Origin: Chloroflexota bacterium
Lineage (GTDB): Bacteria > Chloroflexota > DTOL01 > JACQYG01
Direction: 5' to 3'
DNA length: 64,000 nucleotides
NCBI GenBank assembly: GCA_040754915.1
Contig: JBFMCB010000001.1
Span: 4,443-68,442 of the forward strand
The notes under the pieces are model-generated. The model ran no database searches. It was not told where the DNA came from and saw nothing but the letters and a program-made list of their open reading frames with translations. Each line of letters starts with the position of its first letter. Position 1 is the stretch's first letter. Of the stretch, positions 14,678-62,808 are shown piece by piece. A program made the position numbers and the translations under genes.

Positions 14678-14700
14678 GTCCCGGAGTGCAACTCCGGGAC
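14678..14700. repeat. palindromic repeat copy (GTCCCGGAGT-GCA-ACTCCGGGAC), inner-arm version of the window's REP-like family
   Basis: Perfect 10-bp arms; same inner arms as copies at 14737, 57540, 57746 and 58621. Confidence 0.7.
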
Positions 14701-14736
14701 GAGCGCAGAGATAGAAGAAAGATCCTTGCGAGCTCT

Positions 14737-14765
14737 GATGTCCCGGAGTTCAACTCCGGGACATC
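14737..14765. repeat. palindromic repeat copy (GATGTCCCGGAGTT-C-AACTCCGGGACATC)
   Basis: 29-bp perfect palindrome, 36 bp from the 14678 copy (paired arrangement like a BIME). Confidence 0.75.
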
Positions 14766-14854
14766 ACGTGGGGTTCTCGGCCGCATCTCTAGGACCGGCT
14801 AGATAGGGGAGATCAAGGCGCCCAAGTGATAGTTGGGAACAGAGTGAGAGCGAA

Positions 14855-34306: not shown

Positions 34307-34329
34307 GGTTCAGGAGTTCAACTCCTGAA
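34307..34329. repeat. 23-bp perfect palindrome GTTCAGGAGTT-C-AACTCCTGAAC (variant of the CCGGAGTT-N-AACTCCGG family) in the metG 5' region
   Basis: Read directly; flanked by partial outer symmetry (caactccag...aacaactccagg). Confidence 0.65.
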
Positions 34330-34399
34330 CAACTCCAGGCATGGTCATGAAACCCTTGCCCCAGATGGCGCATATTCTATCACAAACCAGTAAAAAACT

Positions 34400-35260
34400 C
34401 TAACCGCCTGGCGGCCGCTTCTCCGGGTGTTTCTCTCTCCGGCTTGACCAGACCCGGTATACATCTCTCTTGGATCGCCCCGATTCCCGGGCTACCTGGG
34501 CGGTGGCCGTCTTGCGGTCCAGGCCCGAGGCCTGCAGGTGGGCCAGGCGCTCCTGGAGTTCCTGGTCGGTGGTGGTCACCGAGTCCTCCTCTCGGGCCCC
34601 TTCGATCACCAGCGTGAACTCTCCCCGGGGCCTGGTCGTGGCAAAGTGGGCCACTTCTTCGGAGATGGTGCTACGCCGGATCTCCTCGTAAACCTTGGTG
34701 AGCTCTCGAGCAACCACGATCCTCCGGTTGCCCCAGGCCTCCCGCATCGCCTGCAAGCTGGACTCAAGACGGTGGGGTGCCTCAAACACCACCAGGGTCC
34801 TCTTCTCGTGGGCAACTGATTTCAGGAACCCCTCCCTTTTCCTAGCCTGGCGAGGGAGGTAGCCAAGGTAGACGAATTGGTCCGTGGGCAGACCGGATAC
34901 AGCCAGGGCGCTGATCAGGGCCGAGGGCCCGGGGACCGGGACCACCGGTATGCCCCGGGCAATGACCGCAGAAACCAGCTCAAAACCGGGGTCGGAAATG
35001 CCTGGCATTCCCGCATCCGACACCAGGGCCACGTCCATGCCGTCTTGGAGCACAGACAGGATCTGGCTCAGCTTGCTCAGCTTGTTGTGTTCGTGGTAAC
35101 TGGTGACCGCTGTGGCAATCCCGTGCCGGGACAGTAGGAGCCTGGTCCTCCTGGTATCCTCGGCGGCGATAAGCCTCACCTCCCGGAGCACCCGGAGGGC
35201 CCGCAGGGTGATGTCCTCTAGGTTGCCGATAGGTGTGCCGACCACAAAGAGGGTGGACAT
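34400..35260 (-). CDS. rsmI: 16S rRNA (cytidine1402-2'-O)-methyltransferase RsmI
   Basis: MSTLFVVGTPIGNLEDITLRALRVLREVRLIAAEDTRRTRLLL... tetrapyrrole-methylase fold; classic tatD-metG-rsmI neighbourhood. Confidence 0.85.
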   Translation of the reverse strand: MSTLFVVGTPIGNLEDITLRALRVLREVRLIAAEDTRRTRLLLSRHGIATAVTSYHEHNKLSKLSQILSVLQDGMDVALVSDAGMPGISDPGFELVSAVIARGIPVVPVPGPSALISALAVSGLPTDQFVYLGYLPRQARKREGFLKSVAHEKRTLVVFEAPHRLESSLQAMREAWGNRRIVVARELTKVYEEIRRSTISEEVAHFATTRPRGEFTLVIEGAREEDSVTTTDQELQERLAHLQASGLDRKTATAQVARESGRSKRDVYRVWSSRREKHPEKRPPGG

Positions 35261-35280
35261 TTTCTCTACTAGTAAAGAAA
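35261..35280. repeat. CTAG-centred palindromic motif TTTCTCTACTAGTAAAGAAA (copy 1 of 3)
   Basis: Immediately upstream of the rsmI start, in the divergent promoter region with the 35400 gene; near-identical to 55671..55690 and 57785..57802. Confidence 0.6.
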
Positions 35281-35399
35281 CGTGCTGTAGGCCAGCCCGC
35301 CGAACAATCTGGCCGGCTATTGAAAAGCGCTTGTCACCGGAAAGGCAAGACGGTATAATCTAGGCCGTATTTTAGCACAGTATCCGGCCGAATGGAAAT

Positions 35400-35864
35400 G
35401 TGATTTTTGGTACGACCCTAGGCCGAAATGGTGACACAGTGAAAATCTTCCTATCCGGCATAATTCAAGGCTCTAATCTGGGCCGGGAGCTCAACGACCA
35501 GGGTTACCGCCACGCGATCAAGGCTATCCTGCGGGCTCACTGTCCCGCGGTCGAAGTCGTCTGCCCCATGGACCTTCATCCCGATAGCGTAGACTATGCC
35601 CCGGACCTGGGGAAGGAGACGTTTCTCACCCTGGTTCAGGAAGCGAAGGCTGCTGACGCCCTCATCGCCTACCTGCCCAGTGCCAGCATGGGCACGGCCA
35701 TTGAGATCTGGGAGGCCTATCGTGCAGGCGTGCCTATCTACACTATCACCCCCATGACCACGAACTGGGTGATCAATTTCTTTTCCACCCGCGTCTTCGA
35801 GACTTTGCCGGAATTTGAATTTTTCGTTTCTCAGGGTGGGTTGGATTGGTTGGCGAGAAAATAG
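35400..35864 (+). CDS. hypothetical protein, nucleoside 2-deoxyribosyltransferase-like (flavodoxin-like) fold suspected
   Basis: 154 aa; KIFLSGIIQGS near the N-terminus and ADALIAYLPSASMGTAIEIWEAYRAGVPIYTI resemble the NDT/LOG-like pattern (KIYLAG...AD.V.A......D.GT..E.G.A.A.GKPV). Start uncertain (ATG 35400 or GTG 35439). Confidence 0.45.
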   Translation: MIFGTTLGRNGDTVKIFLSGIIQGSNLGRELNDQGYRHAIKAILRAHCPAVEVVCPMDLHPDSVDYAPDLGKETFLTLVQEAKAADALIAYLPSASMGTAIEIWEAYRAGVPIYTITPMTTNWVINFFSTRVFETLPEFEFFVSQGGLDWLARK

Positions 35865-53171: not shown

Positions 53172-53939
53172 ATGAGCAGACAGTTGTACGGCTATTTCCG
53201 AACCGAATCCTTTCCGACGCCGTTTTGCAGCGGATGCGGCCACGGCACGCTCATGGCGGCCTTGATCCGGGCCATTAACTCTTTGAACTGGGACATGAGT
53301 GAGGTGCTCTTCGTCTCCGGCATCGGCTGCGCCGGGTGGATACCCAGCCCTCACTACGCCGCCGACACCCTGCATACCACTCACGGCCGGCCCATCGCCT
53401 TTGCCACCGGAGCTAAGCTATTCAATCCCCGGTTGAAGGTGGTGGTCGTCGGAGGCGACGGTGACATTGCCTCCATCGGCGGTAACCACCTGATCCATGC
53501 TGCCAGGCGCAACACCGACCTCACGGTGATATGCGCCAATAACATGATCTATGGCATGACCGGGGGACAGGTAGCGGCGACGACCCCACCCGGGGCGATA
53601 ACCGCCACCACCGAGGCAGGCAACCCCGACCGGGCCTTCGACCTCTGCCGCCTGGTAGAGGCCGCCGGTGCCACGTACGTAGCCCGCAGTACGGTTTATC
53701 ACGTGGTGCACCTGGTCAAGGTCTTGAAGAATGCGCTGCAGCACCGGGGTTTTGCCTTTGTGGAAGTGCTCTCCTCCTGTCCCACCCACTACGGCCGGCG
53801 CAACAGTGCGGCCTCTCCCACGGACATGCTGAACCTGTACAAGGGCCTCTGCGTCGGCCTGGATTCGGCGGCCCGAGACTCGGCGGCGATTCAAGGGAAA
53901 ATCCTCATCGGCGAGTTCGTAAGAGGTGGCCGAGCATGA
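53172..53939 (+). CDS. korB: 2-oxoacid:ferredoxin oxidoreductase subunit beta (TPP-binding)
   Basis: FCSGCGHG, TPP-binding GDGD (VVVGGDGDIASIGGNHLIHAARRN), CANNMIYGMTGGQ. Confidence 0.85.
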   Translation: MSRQLYGYFRTESFPTPFCSGCGHGTLMAALIRAINSLNWDMSEVLFVSGIGCAGWIPSPHYAADTLHTTHGRPIAFATGAKLFNPRLKVVVVGGDGDIASIGGNHLIHAARRNTDLTVICANNMIYGMTGGQVAATTPPGAITATTEAGNPDRAFDLCRLVEAAGATYVARSTVYHVVHLVKVLKNALQHRGFAFVEVLSSCPTHYGRRNSAASPTDMLNLYKGLCVGLDSAARDSAAIQGKILIGEFVRGGRA

Positions 53940-54262
53940 GAATCAAGGTGCGAATGGGGGAACCTCTGTGGAAAGCCGTGGGCCAGAAGATGATAACGCT
54001 GGCCCTTCCGGACAAGGACAACACTCTAGCTGACGTGCTAGAGGCCCTGGTGGCCACCTACCCCAATCTGGAAAGCGAGCTCCACGGCAGCGGTGAGAGG
54101 CGGGAGTTCTATTACACGCTTTTCCTGAACGGCCAAATCGCGAGTTTTTCCGAGAGGGCCAAGGTGCCGGTTCAAGAGGGAGACGAGGTGTTGATCCTGC
54201 TCCCAGTGGCCGGGGGCTCAGGCTATATTTCTTTACTAGATGAAGAAAGCCAGAGCCGTTGA
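53936..54262 (+). CDS. MoaD/ThiS-family beta-grasp (ubiquitin-like) protein with internal GG followed by a 14-aa C-terminal tail
   Basis: 108 aa, ATGA-coupled to korB; ...EGDEVLILLPVAGGSGYISLLDEESQSR: a Gly-Gly where MoaD/ThiS proteins normally end, plus extension. Confidence 0.6.
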   Translation: MRIKVRMGEPLWKAVGQKMITLALPDKDNTLADVLEALVATYPNLESELHGSGERREFYYTLFLNGQIASFSERAKVPVQEGDEVLILLPVAGGSGYISLLDEESQSR

Positions 54263-54523: not shown

Positions 54524-55666
54524 GTGTACCGGCTAGCCGATGCGCAAAGGATGCTCCAGGCTGTCGTTCGCGAGCTGGCTCAGGAGAAGATCGCGCCCCG
54601 GGCGGCGGAGATTGACGACAAGGGCGAGTATCCCTGGGACATGAAAGAGCTCCTGGCGCGACAGGACCTCCTGGCATTGCCCTTTCCCGAGAAGTACGGC
54701 GGCACCGGATCGGACCTATTTACTTTTTGTTTGGTAGTGGAGGAGATCGCCAAGGTTTGCGCCTCTTCGTCGCTCATCGTCCTCGTCCAGGCCCTGGGCT
54801 CCTTTCCGATCCTGATCGCCGGGACAGAGACCCAGAAACAGAGGTATTTCCCCAAGCTGGCCTCCGGGGATTGGCTTGCTGCCTTTGCCCTGACCGAGCC
54901 CGGCGCGGGCTCCGATGCAGCGGCCATGAAGACCAGGGCGGTCCTTGAGGGAGACCATTACGTCCTGAACGGCAGCAAGTGCTTCATTACCAACGCCGGC
55001 ATCGCCCAGGTCTACTCCGTCTTCGCCATGACCGATCCCCACAAGGGAGTGAAAGGCATCAGCGCCTTCATCGTGGACGCCGATTCGCCCGGCTTTCGCC
55101 TGGGCAAGATCGAGCACAAAATGGGCATCCGAGGCTCCCAGACCGGTGAACTGGTCTTCGACAACTGCATAGTTCCGGTGGGTAACTTGCTGGGCAACGA
55201 GGGCGATGGCTTTAAGATCGCCATGATGACTCTGGACAAATCACGCCCGGGCGTGGGTGCCCAGGCCGTGGGCATCGCCCAGGGTGCTCTGGACTACGCC
55301 GCCAGGTATGCCAAGGAACGGGTTCAGTTCGGCGCTCCCATTGCCAACCTGCAGGCCATCCAGTTCATGCTGGCGGACATGGCCATGCAGGTGGAGGCGG
55401 CCAGGTGCCTGGTATACGAGGCCGCGGCCAGGGTGGACGCCGGAGAGAAGGGAATCACCATGTCCTCGGCCATGGCCAAGTGCTTCGCCGGGGACGTCGC
55501 CATGCGGGTCACCACCGATGCCCTGCAGGTGTTGGGGGGCTATGGTTACATGAAAGAATACCCCCTGGAGCGCATGATGCGAGATGCCAAGATAACGCAG
55601 ATCTACGAGGGCACCAATCAGATCCAGCGCCTGGTCATTGCCCGGGCCTTGTTGGCCAGCTATTAA
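54524..55666 (+). CDS. acyl-CoA dehydrogenase (short/medium-chain, butyryl-CoA dehydrogenase-like)
   Basis: GTG start after SD AAGGAGGG; LTEPGAGSDAAAMKTRA, catalytic-glutamate region IYEGTNQIQRLVIARALL at the C-terminus. Confidence 0.9.
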   Translation: MYRLADAQRMLQAVVRELAQEKIAPRAAEIDDKGEYPWDMKELLARQDLLALPFPEKYGGTGSDLFTFCLVVEEIAKVCASSSLIVLVQALGSFPILIAGTETQKQRYFPKLASGDWLAAFALTEPGAGSDAAAMKTRAVLEGDHYVLNGSKCFITNAGIAQVYSVFAMTDPHKGVKGISAFIVDADSPGFRLGKIEHKMGIRGSQTGELVFDNCIVPVGNLLGNEGDGFKIAMMTLDKSRPGVGAQAVGIAQGALDYAARYAKERVQFGAPIANLQAIQFMLADMAMQVEAARCLVYEAAARVDAGEKGITMSSAMAKCFAGDVAMRVTTDALQVLGGYGYMKEYPLERMMRDAKITQIYEGTNQIQRLVIARALLASY

Positions 55667-55670
55667 GAGA

Positions 55671-55690
55671 TTTCTTTGCTAGTAAAGAAA
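55671..55690. repeat. CTAG-centred palindromic motif TTTCTTTGCTAGTAAAGAAA (copy 2 of 3), 5 nt after the acdh stop
   Basis: One mismatch (G/A, G-U compatible as RNA) from a perfect 20-bp palindrome. Confidence 0.6.
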
Positions 55691-57539: not shown

Positions 57540-57576
57540 CCCCGATGTCCCGGAGTTGAACTCCGGGACATCGGGG
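57540..57576. repeat. 37-bp perfect palindrome CCCCGATGTCCCGGAGTT-G-AACTCCGGGACATCGGGG (full-length REP-like copy), intergenic etfA / Fe-S oxidoreductase
   Basis: Read directly; 18-bp arms. Confidence 0.8.
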
Positions 57577-57602: not shown

Positions 57603-59684
57603 ATGGGGTCGATCTTCCGCGACACCTTCTGGAACGTACCGGTGTGGGCTCAGGCCGTCCATTACCTCCTGTCCATAGCCGCCCTGCTCATTCTCAGCTA
57701 CGGCGTCTACCGGCGGGTCTCCCTCTGGCGCCAGGGCCAGAAAACCCCCCGATGTCCCGGAGTTAAACTCCGGGACATCGGGGGTTCTTTACTAGTAAAG
57801 AAGCGGGTGAAGGCCTTTCTGCTCTACGCCATCGCACAGTTGCGCCTGCTCAGGGAGAGGTATCCGGGGATAATGCACCTCTTTATCTTCTGGGGCATGG
57901 TGGTCCTCTTCCTGGGCACGGCCACGGTCACCCTGGACTATGACGTGGCCCACCTGATATTCCGGACCCAGTTTCTAACCGATGGATTCTACCTGGTTTT
58001 CAAGCTTACTTTGGACATCTTAGGCGCCTTGCTCATCGTTGGCGTGCTCCTGGCGGCTTACCGGCGCTACGTCCTCCGCCCTTCGAGGTTGGATAACCTC
58101 TGGCAGGATGCCTATCAGCTCGGGATGCTCTTCGCCATCGGGCTCATGGGCTTTCTCCTGGAGGCCATGCGCCTCGCGGCCTTTAAGCAGCCGGAGGTGG
58201 CCATCTGGTCTCCGGTGGGCTATCTTCTGGCTCAGCCCTTCTGGGGCGTCACTAAGGAGACCATCCGGCCCTACTATGTGGGAACCTGGTTCGTCCACTC
58301 CACCATGGCCCTGGTCTTCATCGCCAGCCTGCCCTACACTAAGCTCTGGCACATCGTCGCCTCTCCGACCAACATCTTCTTCCGCTCCTTGAGGCCAGCC
58401 GGGGAGCTCTTGCCCATCGAGAACCTCGAGGAACAGGAGACCTTCGGTGTGGGGAAGTTCGAGGAATTCACCTGGAAACAGCGCCTGGATTTCGATGCCT
58501 GTACCCGCTGTGGCCGCTGCCAGGACGCCTGTCCGGCCTGGGCCAGCGGCGCCTCGCTCTCCCCCAAGAAACTGATCCTGGAGCTGCAGCAATGCATGCT
58601 GGAAAAGCCCACCCTGGATACCCCCGATGTCCCCCCGATGTCCCGGAGTTCAACTCCGAGACATCGGGGGACATCGGGCTCGAAAGACCTGCACGGGAAG
58701 GTGGTGGCCGCCGACGAGCTCTGGGCCTGCACCACCTGCCGCGCCTGTGTGCAGGAGTGCCCGGTCTTCATCGAGCACGTGGATACCATTGTGGACATGC
58801 GCCGCTATCTCACCCTCTCCGAGGGGGCGGTGCCGGCGACTACCGCCACCACCCTGAAGCAGATGACTAACCAAGGTAATCCATGGGGGCTCTCCAAGAA
58901 TGACCGGCTGAAGTGGGCTGAGGGTCTGGACGTGAAGGCCATCGCCCCGGGCCAGGAGGTGGAGTATCTCTATTGGGTGGGGTGTTCGGCAGCTTACGAC
59001 GCGCGAAACCAGAAGGTGGCAAAGGCCATGGTGCGGGTGCTTAAGGCGGCCGGGGTGGACTTCGCCATCCTGGGCAACCAGGAGAGATGCTGTGGGGACT
59101 CTGCCCGGCGCTTAGGTGAGGAGTACCTCTTCCAGACTCTGGCCATGGAGAACATCGATAATCTAAAGAAATACCGTTTCCAGAAGATCGTCACTGCCTG
59201 CCCCCACGGCTACAACACGATCAAGAACGAGTACCCGCAGCTCGGCGGAAATTACACCGTCATCCACCACACTGAGTTATTGGCCCAGTTGGTCCAGGAG
59301 GGAAGGCTCGAGCTTTCCAGGCCTTTATACAAGAACATCACCTACCACGATTCGTGCTACCTGGGCCGGTACAACGACATCTTCCAGGCACCCCGCCAGG
59401 TATTGGCCGCCCTCCCCGGCGCTCTGCTCAAGGAGATGGACCGGTCTGGCGATCGGGGCTTCTGCTGCGGCGGTGGCGGCGGCCAGATGTGGATGGAGGC
59501 CAAGGTAGAAAAACGGGTGAACCACATTCGGCTGGAGGATGCCCTGTCGATCAAGCCGGACTGTGTGGGCACCGCCTGCCCCTTCTGCCTGACCATGTTC
59601 GTGGACGCGGCGAAGGTCAAGGGCATCGAAGACTCCTTACCGGTAAAAGACGTGGTGGAGCTCATCGCCGAAGCCTTGGTTTAG
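57603..59684 (+). CDS. membrane-anchored Fe-S oxidoreductase (NarI-like N-terminal membrane domain, 2x[4Fe-4S] ferredoxin motifs, two CCG/HdrD-like Cys-rich domains); putative Etf:quinone oxidoreductase
   Basis: 693 aa; 5 N-terminal hydrophobic helices; CTRCGRCQDACP and CTTCRACVQECP cluster motifs; CCG-domain motifs (CSAAYDARNQ...CCGDSA; CYLGRYN...GFCCGGGGG). Gene order acdh-etfB-etfA-FeS matches syntrophic butyrate oxidiser loci as I recall them. Contains two in-frame palindromic-repeat insertions. Confidence 0.85.
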   Translation: MGSIFRDTFWNVPVWAQAVHYLLSIAALLILSYGVYRRVSLWRQGQKTPRCPGVKLRDIGGSLLVKKRVKAFLLYAIAQLRLLRERYPGIMHLFIFWGMVVLFLGTATVTLDYDVAHLIFRTQFLTDGFYLVFKLTLDILGALLIVGVLLAAYRRYVLRPSRLDNLWQDAYQLGMLFAIGLMGFLLEAMRLAAFKQPEVAIWSPVGYLLAQPFWGVTKETIRPYYVGTWFVHSTMALVFIASLPYTKLWHIVASPTNIFFRSLRPAGELLPIENLEEQETFGVGKFEEFTWKQRLDFDACTRCGRCQDACPAWASGASLSPKKLILELQQCMLEKPTLDTPDVPPMSRSSTPRHRGTSGSKDLHGKVVAADELWACTTCRACVQECPVFIEHVDTIVDMRRYLTLSEGAVPATTATTLKQMTNQGNPWGLSKNDRLKWAEGLDVKAIAPGQEVEYLYWVGCSAAYDARNQKVAKAMVRVLKAAGVDFAILGNQERCCGDSARRLGEEYLFQTLAMENIDNLKKYRFQKIVTACPHGYNTIKNEYPQLGGNYTVIHHTELLAQLVQEGRLELSRPLYKNITYHDSCYLGRYNDIFQAPRQVLAALPGALLKEMDRSGDRGFCCGGGGGQMWMEAKVEKRVNHIRLEDALSIKPDCVGTACPFCLTMFVDAAKVKGIEDSLPVKDVVELIAEALV
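57746..57784. repeat. 39-bp perfect palindrome CCCCCGATGTCCCGGAGTT-A-AACTCCGGGACATCGGGGG located in-frame inside the Fe-S oxidoreductase CDS (encodes TPRCPGVKLRDIGG)
   Basis: Read directly; lies in the loop after the first TM helix; reading frame uninterrupted. Confidence 0.8.
57785..57802. repeat. CTAG-centred perfect palindrome TTCTTTACTAGTAAAGAA (copy 3 of 3), in-frame inside the Fe-S oxidoreductase CDS immediately after the REP-like copy
   Basis: 18-bp perfect palindrome abutting 57746..57784; encodes SLLVKK. Confidence 0.6.
58621..58678. repeat. about 58-bp nested palindrome (CCCCCGATGT + CCCCCCGATGTCCCGGAGTT-C-AACTCCGAGACATCGGGGG + ACATCGGG) in-frame inside the Fe-S oxidoreductase CDS between the two ferredoxin-type Cys motifs
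   Basis: Outer-arm unit CCCCGATGT duplicated; one arm mismatch (CCGAG vs CCGGG); encodes ...DTPDVPPMSRSSTPRHRGTSGS... Confidence 0.8.
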
Positions 59685-59706: not shown

Positions 59707-59726
59707 TCCCCGATGTCGACATCGGG
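59707..59726. repeat. 20-bp perfect palindrome CCCCGATGTC-GACATCGGGG (outer-arm-only 'minimal' copy), intergenic Fe-S oxidoreductase / acdh
   Basis: Shares the CCCCGATGTC outer arms of the long copies but lacks the CCGGAGTT inner arms. Confidence 0.7.
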
Positions 59727-59754
59727 GCGATTCTGCGAAAGGGGGTAAACGACT

Positions 59755-62742: not shown

Positions 62743-62808
62743 CAACGTTGAACAATCCTCCCGCAGGTTCCAAACCTGCGGGAGGATTAGGCTTTGGACG
62801 TTCAACGC
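62743..62808 (+). terminator. long nested hairpin after fixX (inner perfect 16-bp stem AATCCTCCCGCAGGTT-CCAA-AACCTGCGGGAGGATT; outer arms ACGTTGAAC/GTTCAACG); terminator/attenuator candidate
   Basis: Inner stem 62754..62789 read directly; followed by GGCTTTGG. Confidence 0.55.

Follow-up and report, generated by a model that had tools for sequence, protein, structure and literature searches.

What kind of element places the same short palindrome in front of one gene, in the spacer between two others and in frame inside a further one? This question is raised by a 64,000-nucleotide stretch of Chloroflexota DNA (contig JBFMCB010000001.1, positions 4,443 to 68,442), referred to here in its full length as the window, in which an AT-rich palindrome of 18 to 20 bp centred on CTAG recurs. 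An earlier note on this stretch had reported three copies and had suggested a mobile unit, a regulator binding site or a site related to methylation or restriction. We favour, with a confidence slightly better than even, a lineage-specific miniature palindromic repeat, selfish or neutral, that is tied to a family of miniature inverted-repeat transposable elements (MITEs). On this reading, the window copies serve no common function for rsmI or the acdh-etf operon.

The three reported copies were recovered in the window exactly as described. Copy 1 (35261-35280, TTTCTCTACTAGTAAAGAAA) is a 20-mer with a single asymmetric substitution and occupies the 20 nt directly 5' of the ATG of rsmI, whose start codon it abuts. 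The rsmI gene (34400-35260, minus strand), for the 16S rRNA C1402 2'-O-methyltransferase, is assigned from its open reading frame (ORF), the source names and PF00590. Copy 2 (55671-55690, TTTCTTTGCTAGTAAAGAAA), also with a single asymmetric substitution, lies in the acdh-etfB spacer. It starts 4 nt past the TAA of the upstream acyl-CoA dehydrogenase gene (acdh, 54524-55666, plus strand) and ends 44 nt ahead of etfB. Copy 3 (57785-57802, TTCTTTACTAGTAAAGAA) is a perfect 18-mer, the sole perfect palindrome among these three, and is hosted in frame by a membrane Fe-S oxidoreductase gene with CCG and 4Fe-4S domains (57603-59684, plus strand). It is read as SLLVKK, placed in the loop behind the first transmembrane helix, and it abuts a 39-bp GC-rich palindrome of the repetitive extragenic palindromic (REP) kind at 57746-57784. 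The count of three did not hold, since a degenerate fourth copy (54228-54248, TTTCTTTACTAGaTgAAGAAA / TTTCTTTACTAGATGAAGAAA) had been overlooked. This copy has a perfect left arm and centre and a right arm with a 1-nt insertion and 1 substitution, and it is found at the 3' end of a ThiS-family ORF, in the 14-codon tail beyond the GG motif. With up to 3 mismatches allowed, the 18-mer occurs in the window only as copies 1 to 3, and it had 0 matches in 100 dinucleotide-preserving shuffles, which rules out chance recurrence, as the earlier note had maintained. An assembly or linker artefact, suspected from the SpeI site and the perfect symmetry, was rejected on the basis of orthologous positions, point variants, kept reading frames and independent assemblies of different studies.

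The prediction that further copies would lie beyond the window was borne out: about 85 copies with up to 3 mismatches were found in about 300 kb from four or five close genomes of a narrow group of uncultured Chloroflexota, the loci of which are given here by L numbers. The core of the family is TTCTTTACTAGTAAAGAA, and about half of the copies carry the 20-mer extension (T...A). The 18-mer was counted 38, 23, 15, 10 and 2 times at 0, 1, 2, 3 and 4 mismatches, respectively, with 0 expected in each class from composition-matched random sequence for these ~300 kb. At 5 mismatches, 11 occurrences were found against 1.3 expected, and these include half copies that end longer elements. Every occurrence of the 8-mer core TACTAGTA in the clade loci falls inside an 18-mer copy no more than 3 mismatches off the consensus. 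At the edge of the 18-mer, the next outward base is T/A in 49% of the copies, and the flanks beyond correspond to background.

We scanned 185,579 genomes, one per bacterial or archaeal species, with the pattern TTCTYTRCTAGYARAGAA. It matched at least 105 stretches; among the matches listed, 33 are high-GC loci from just two Chloroflexota metagenome-assembled genomes (MAGs), JACQYG01 from groundwater and DYIS01 from a mine, and the remaining ones are single matches, almost all in unrelated AT-rich genomes, as chance predicts. These two MAGs, JACRBP01 (L106, L148), a few metagenome contigs and the window share 93-96% mutual nucleotide identity. The exact 18-mer was recovered from JGI metagenomes in the same species group only, apart from chance matches in AT-rich contigs, and from viral contigs in just 2 chance matches, likewise in AT-rich contigs. 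A literature search for the core sequence returned unrelated primer or spacer matches only. Two syntenic loci from the nearest outgroups have 75-79% amino-acid identity in the dehydrogenase and the same acdh-etfB-etfA-Fe-S oxidoreductase order, and contain no copy at up to 5 mismatches in 40 kb. The family therefore arose after the outgroup split and before the 93-96% group diverged.

Positions relative to genes were determined using a simple codon-usage gene caller trained on the clade loci, which called 88% of the sequence coding. Of 68 copies with up to 2 mismatches, 39 (57%) are intergenic, an enrichment of about five-fold, and many of these are found only a few bases from a start or stop codon. 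The other 29 of the 68 copies (43%) are genic. The genic copies encode either FFTSKE (n=14) or SLLVKK (n=15); on both strands, the remaining frame is closed by TAG TAA, and all genic copies are in one of the two open frames. The host and neighbouring genes are unrelated in function and include selB, polA, valS, ruvX, xdhC, comEC and GGDEF, radical-SAM, glycosyltransferase, kinase and ABC transporter genes. Where domains could be mapped, the genic copies are located in linkers, loops and tails. The copy in PolA (residue 295) lies between the 5' nuclease and 3'-5' exonuclease domains, and that in ComEC (residue 483) separates the Competence domain from the one with the beta-lactamase fold; those in a GGDEF protein (residue 33) and a radical-SAM protein (residue 511 of 536) fall in a linker or tail. 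The 64-kb window contains 3-4 copies, density reaches about 1 per 4-5 kb even in loci picked for having a copy, and it is put at about 1 per 5-20 kb. Copies can cluster locally: where valS is followed by a spacer and a Ser/Thr kinase-FHA gene (L082:6481-6652; orthologue L101:1455-1625), this spacer has 4 copies within 170 bp, with 2 more within 1.3 kb.

Inside genes, the palindrome takes the place of existing sequence. In the closest relative, whose Fe-S oxidoreductase (P0001) is 96% identical, the stretch across copy 3 is ...QKTKISLLVKKRAK..., and eight distant homologues and both outgroups have x-R-[LFT]-D-x-x-P-x-R over an identical number of residues. Copy 3 thus occupies a conserved R-x-D-x-x-P-x-R stretch with no change in length, and the outgroup nucleotides at this position show no resemblance to the palindrome. 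RuvX aligns without gaps across its palindrome to three PDB homologues, XdhC is one residue shorter than its homologues at the palindrome, and a UbiE-like methyltransferase keeps its length to within one residue; the alignment of SelB is ambiguous. A six-residue insertion into the host proteins is ruled out by the alignments of Fe-S oxidoreductase, RuvX, XdhC and UbiE-like methyltransferase. Between genes, the palindrome accompanies a net gain of sequence: the acdh-etfB spacer measures 68 bp in the window versus 31 and 13 bp in the outgroups without the palindrome, a gain of 37-55 bp. Copy 2 in L141 is identical to that of the window. No target-site duplication was detected, as direct repeats of 1-6 nt around 70 non-redundant 18-mers occur only at chance frequency. 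A precedent is that of the Rickettsia palindromic elements (RPEs), which also survive in frame in genes, including housekeeping genes, mostly in tolerant regions. RPEs are 100-150 bp long and add residues, whereas here, in the four cases that align well, 18 bp replaces six residues and the protein keeps its length or becomes one residue shorter.

The evidence that ties the palindrome to mobile DNA comes from its half copies. Matches at 5-6 mismatches include sites with a perfect arm TTCTTTACTAG followed by other sequence, and several of these pair in inverted orientation around non-coding elements of 66-430 bp, of three kinds. At least three longer MITE-like elements, bounded by TTCTTTACTAG...CTAGTAAAGAA, thus end in the arm. 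Family A (L007:1741-1988 and L025:5695-6128, with further ends in L116 and L009) has no inverted repeat but the arm. Family B (L008:303-648, with an internal deletion down to 66 bp at L082:3143-3208) and family C (L057:326-518) have longer inverted repeats that begin with the arm. L007 has element A, but the orthologous site in L075 lacks it, and the allele there consists of 40 different bp, neither a clean empty site nor an intact palindrome; part of this 40-bp allele resembles the end of element A. We favour the arm as the terminus of a MITE superfamily over MITEs integrating at the CTAG centre of the palindrome, because one agent then covers both the 18-mers and the longer elements, and family A would otherwise be without terminal repeats. 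The mobile origin that the earlier note had deemed possible fits a dispersed repeat of this kind, with arms that end MITE-like elements.

The copies appear to be decaying. Substitutions and small indels erode individual copies. AT>GC transitions make up most of the mismatches, and the count of mismatches per copy follows a roughly Poisson distribution (mean near 1.1), a pattern that fits a burst followed by decay. Copy 1 is found as the same variant in L084 and L148 and is intact there and in the window. In L149 and L150, which are ~99% identical to the window, it lacks 5 bp of the left arm and its CTAG has become CTGG, and the window itself lacks 19 bp immediately beside copy 1. Such loss would not be expected for a dimeric operator. 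Between orthologous loci, divergence is 7.4% for intergenic DNA and 2.8%, 2.0% and 7.5% for first, second and third codon positions, respectively; it is 2.8% (4/145 positions) for intergenic palindromes and 5.0% (5/101) for genic ones. Overall, 9 of 246 palindrome positions differ versus a neutral rate of ~7.5%, in loci chosen for having matches.

In the mechanism that we propose, one transposase or recombinase would read the ~10-bp terminus as double-stranded DNA, and the longer elements as well as the bare end-to-end unit would owe their movement to this one enzyme. The weakness of the hairpin, with -3.8 kcal/mol for the consensus 20-mer and -0.7 kcal/mol for copy 1, versus -24 kcal/mol for the GC-rich REP, argues that the sequence is recognised as duplex DNA and not by its structure. 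Integration would delete a variable stretch of target and leave no target-site duplication; the basis for this step is that REPs in the same DNA replace 6-17 bp of target and that the polymorphic site of element A holds 40 different bp in the relative. Inside genes, only in-frame events with near-zero net change in length would be tolerated. The repeat shares with MITEs and with REPs and bacterial interspersed mosaic elements (BIMEs) its short, non-coding nature, high copy number, lineage specificity, enrichment between genes, clusters in spacers and coexistence with other palindromic repeat families in the same genome. Like MITEs, it has inverted terminal repeats, as the 18-mer itself consists of two 9-bp inverted arms and the arm ends three longer non-coding elements. 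Unlike MITEs, its commonest form is 18-20 bp, two termini with nothing between, and has no target-site duplication. Unlike the REPs mobilised by REP-associated tyrosine transposases (RAYTs), it lacks a GT(A/G)G 5' tetranucleotide, has a weak hairpin and is genic in 29 of 68 copies. No RAYT or transposase gene was found on the fragmented MAG contigs.

Several observations weigh against a mobile repeat. A unit of 18 bp leaves too little room for a conventional two-ended transpososome. No target-site duplication is visible at the flanks of elements A to C, which is unusual for DDE transposons; no autonomous element, in the form of a transposase gene flanked by TTTCTTTACTAG...CTAGTAAAGAAA termini, was found in the ~350 kb of clade sequence, and comparison of the MITE-like elements with a plasmid collection gave no match. 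Half sites beside longer elements are equally compatible with MITEs integrating at the CTAG centre. No 18-mer shows presence/absence polymorphism, the site being common to all 14 of 14 orthologous pairs. All four of the four well-aligned genic copies keep protein length to within one residue; such preservation is a prediction of a motif that evolves in place, whereas an insertion model needs the extra assumption of variable target deletion plus selection. The divergence of 2.8% in intergenic palindromes versus 7.4% in other intergenic DNA hints at mild constraint, although these loci were chosen for matches and are therefore biased. Finally, 4 of 25 multiply-mutated copies show symmetric compensated double changes, including three independent CCGG-centred ones, which speaks against pure neutrality.

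The rival that draws most from these points is a motif evolving in place. It would be read by a dimeric host protein of the ParB/Noc or SlmA kind, or by an uptake receptor as for uptake signal sequences (USS) and DNA uptake sequences (DUS), and selection or uptake-biased recombination would move many loci, genic ones included, to the consensus through point substitution, with MITEs arriving secondarily at its CTAG centre. We consider it possible but doubtful, and it keeps a sizeable minority of the probability because length preservation is its exact prediction. USS/DUS, HIP1, Streptomyces parS and Bacillus Noc sites likewise keep gene length, and IS5- and IS630-type elements target CTAG. The compensated changes, the low intergenic divergence and the fourteen common sites all suit this rival, as do the graded edge (T/A in 49% of copies), the clusters in one spacer and the existence of a comEC gene in the clade. 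Competence is not known in this phylum. Other features are difficult to reconcile with a motif read in place. In near-identical strains, half of one arm is gone from the rsmI copy, and indels are found in other copies. The mismatch spectrum has a gap at 4 mismatches (2 copies), and the excess at 5 includes half copies rather than forming a graded tail of weak sites. The outright exchange of the conserved R-x-D-x-x-P-x-R for unrelated sequence is hard to reach via tolerated single steps, and the acdh-etfB spacer gained its 37-55 bp with the palindrome, so that the motif did not arise in place there. Element A, without any inverted repeat beyond the arms, looks like a MITE that has the arms as its terminal repeats.

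Comparison with the systems on which this rival is modelled gives a mixed result. HIP1 of cyanobacteria (GCGATCGC), itself also a palindrome, and the USS/DUS of Pasteurellaceae and Neisseriaceae are over-represented both in genes and in spacers, cause no length change and use tolerated frames, as here. They differ in that they have 8-12 specified bases at ~1 per kb and spread by substitution under selection or uptake drive, whereas the present repeat has 18-20 bp, a density far below that of uptake sequences, decay by indels and a place at the ends of MITE-like elements. The parS and Noc sites are near-perfect palindromes of similar length (14-16 bp), present in tens to ~100 copies and often genic in high-GC genomes without length change. 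However, compared by eye with the consensus sequences, the half site matches parS (TGTTNCACGTGAAACA) at 4 of 8 positions only and the Noc-binding site (NBS, ATTTCCCGGGAAAT) at 5 of 8. The sites are linked to no ParB-like gene, and in rsmI the copy has not been maintained.

A stronger statement can take a form on either side. The clade would have, or would recently have had, an undescribed process by which chromosomal DNA is overwritten, at equal length, with a fixed palindrome of 18-20 bp, even in essential genes such as valS, polA, ruvX and selB, either as a replacing mobile element that leaves no target duplication or as an uptake-signal-like or chromosome-organising motif spread by molecular drive. 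In this strong form we regard the statement as unlikely.

Much less probable is a methylation or restriction system specific for CTAG or ACTAGT as the explanation of the motif. With 52 CTAG sites against 225 expected, the window is 4.3-fold depleted in this tetranucleotide, and the CTGG and CCGG variants seen at the centre might reflect such a system, as they are the changes that very-short-patch-type repair would make. Known specificities, however, span 4-8 bp and cannot account for a conserved unit of 18-20 bp with 18 conserved positions and a sharp edge. Only 4 CTAG in the window lie in palindromes, while 48 of the 52 CTAG and 2 of the 4 ACTAGT sites are without arms, and no methyltransferase is linked to the sites. 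The suggestion of the earlier note that the motif is such a site thus fails to explain it.

Its other suggestion, an operator for a local transcription factor acting on the acdh-etf-Fe-S oxidoreductase operon and rsmI, is no more credible: although three of the four window copies fall within a 3.6-kb stretch at the operon, the divergent promoter region that holds copy 1 has promoter-like hexamers close by and dyad symmetry suits a dimeric helix-turn-helix protein, the copies in the clade are in or next to functionally unrelated genes and 43% of them in coding sequence, nearly all 18 positions are conserved unlike in a regulon motif, copy 2 follows a stop codon inside the operon, copy 3 is 180 nt into a gene, the syntenic outgroup operon has no site, the rsmI copy has lost part of one arm in near-identical strains and is not maintained as a dyad, and no regulator gene adjoins the operon. 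Copy 1 lies at the Shine-Dalgarno position of rsmI, downstream of a minus-strand promoter-like site. A terminator or RNA-stabilising hairpin was rejected on the weak stem and the lack of a terminator-like site in 35100-35500, and no Rfam families or tRNAs were found in the window.

The earlier note had also raised the possibility that copy 3 and the adjoining REP form one composite mobile unit. This is refuted by the closest relative, L106 (96% amino-acid identity), in which copy 3 is intact at the same codons (ATTTCTTTACTAGTAAAGAAG) and all three REPs of the region are absent. Since L106 has copy 3 without the REP, the palindrome is the older of the two, and the REP beside it was inserted later and independently. 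In addition, no AT palindrome adjoins the REPs at 57540 and 58633, nor does any REP adjoin copy 1 or copy 2. The Fe-S oxidoreductase gene carries two in-frame REP insertions (57746-57784 and 58633-58669), which add 11 and 13 residues. Compared with L106, the window REPs replace 6, 10 and 17 bp of target without duplication, and their absence from L106 points to recent REP activity.

If the palindrome is a mobile repeat, as we favour, no smaller palindromic repeat unit would be known to spread through a bacterial genome, and this one persists as a six-residue patch in housekeeping proteins. The palindrome would then also be the second example, after RPEs, of selfish DNA that reshapes proteins, here by replacement rather than insertion. 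Were the motif instead to evolve in place, it would point to an unknown sequence-reading protein, one that serves DNA uptake or organises the chromosome, in a phylum-level lineage that is uncultured. The strong form of the statement, if true, would make it either a replacing mobile element of a new kind, smaller than any known, or the first uptake-signal-like or chromosome-organising motif in the phylum. For annotation, the palindrome sites should not be called operators, and the FFTSKE and SLLVKK patches and the REP-encoded peptides should be treated as repeat-derived and not as functional motifs. The palindrome repeat is also a clean metagenome marker for the clade.

Some further observations concern the genes and palindromes around these copies. 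The ThiS/MoaD-family ORF that contains copy 4 (53936-54262) runs 14 codons beyond the GG (…VAGGSGYISLLDEESQSR*), and this extension holds the copy; in the outgroups, the ThiS-like proteins encoded at the corresponding place stop at GG. The ThiS/MoaD-family carrier of the window may need C-terminal processing, or may be impaired. A segment of 239 bp within rsmI (34828-35066) is present in the window and in L148 and absent from the JACQYG01 MAG contig L084, which is either a deletion or an assembly error of that MAG.

The GC-rich REP family has the core GTCCCGGAGTTnAACTCCGGGAC and a hairpin of about -24 kcal/mol, and is found in the window at 57540-57576, 57746-57784 and 58633-58669, and also at 14678-14700 and 14736-14766. 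At 59708-59727, the sequence CCCCGATGTCGACATCGGGG corresponds to a REP copy minus its 17-bp centre, with a full copy at the same site in L106. This shows that palindromic elements here can collapse to shorter perfect palindromes. At 34308-34330, the longest ORF for metG contains a REP variant, GTTCAGGAGTTCAACTCCTGAAC, in its 5' portion; translation of metG probably begins at the downstream Met, which would place this REP in the leader. A third palindromic repeat family, AATCCTCCCGCAGGTTC...GAACCTGCGGGAGGATT and variants, occurs in the window at 62754-62788, with related copies in L061, L025:5832-5869 and L057:2995-3044, and is polymorphic among related MAGs. Such palindromes are nearly lacking from the outgroup loci L144 and L147, so that hairpin repeats appear to have invaded the clade as a whole. 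At L144:15591-15616, the outgroup locus has a palindrome of 26 bp, GCATATAGAACATATGTTCTATATGC, that lies upstream of a cassette of the imuB/dnaE2 type. This palindrome resembles a LexA box (GAAC-N4-GTTC) and serves as a contrast, as it looks like a single-site operator, very unlike a dispersed repeat.

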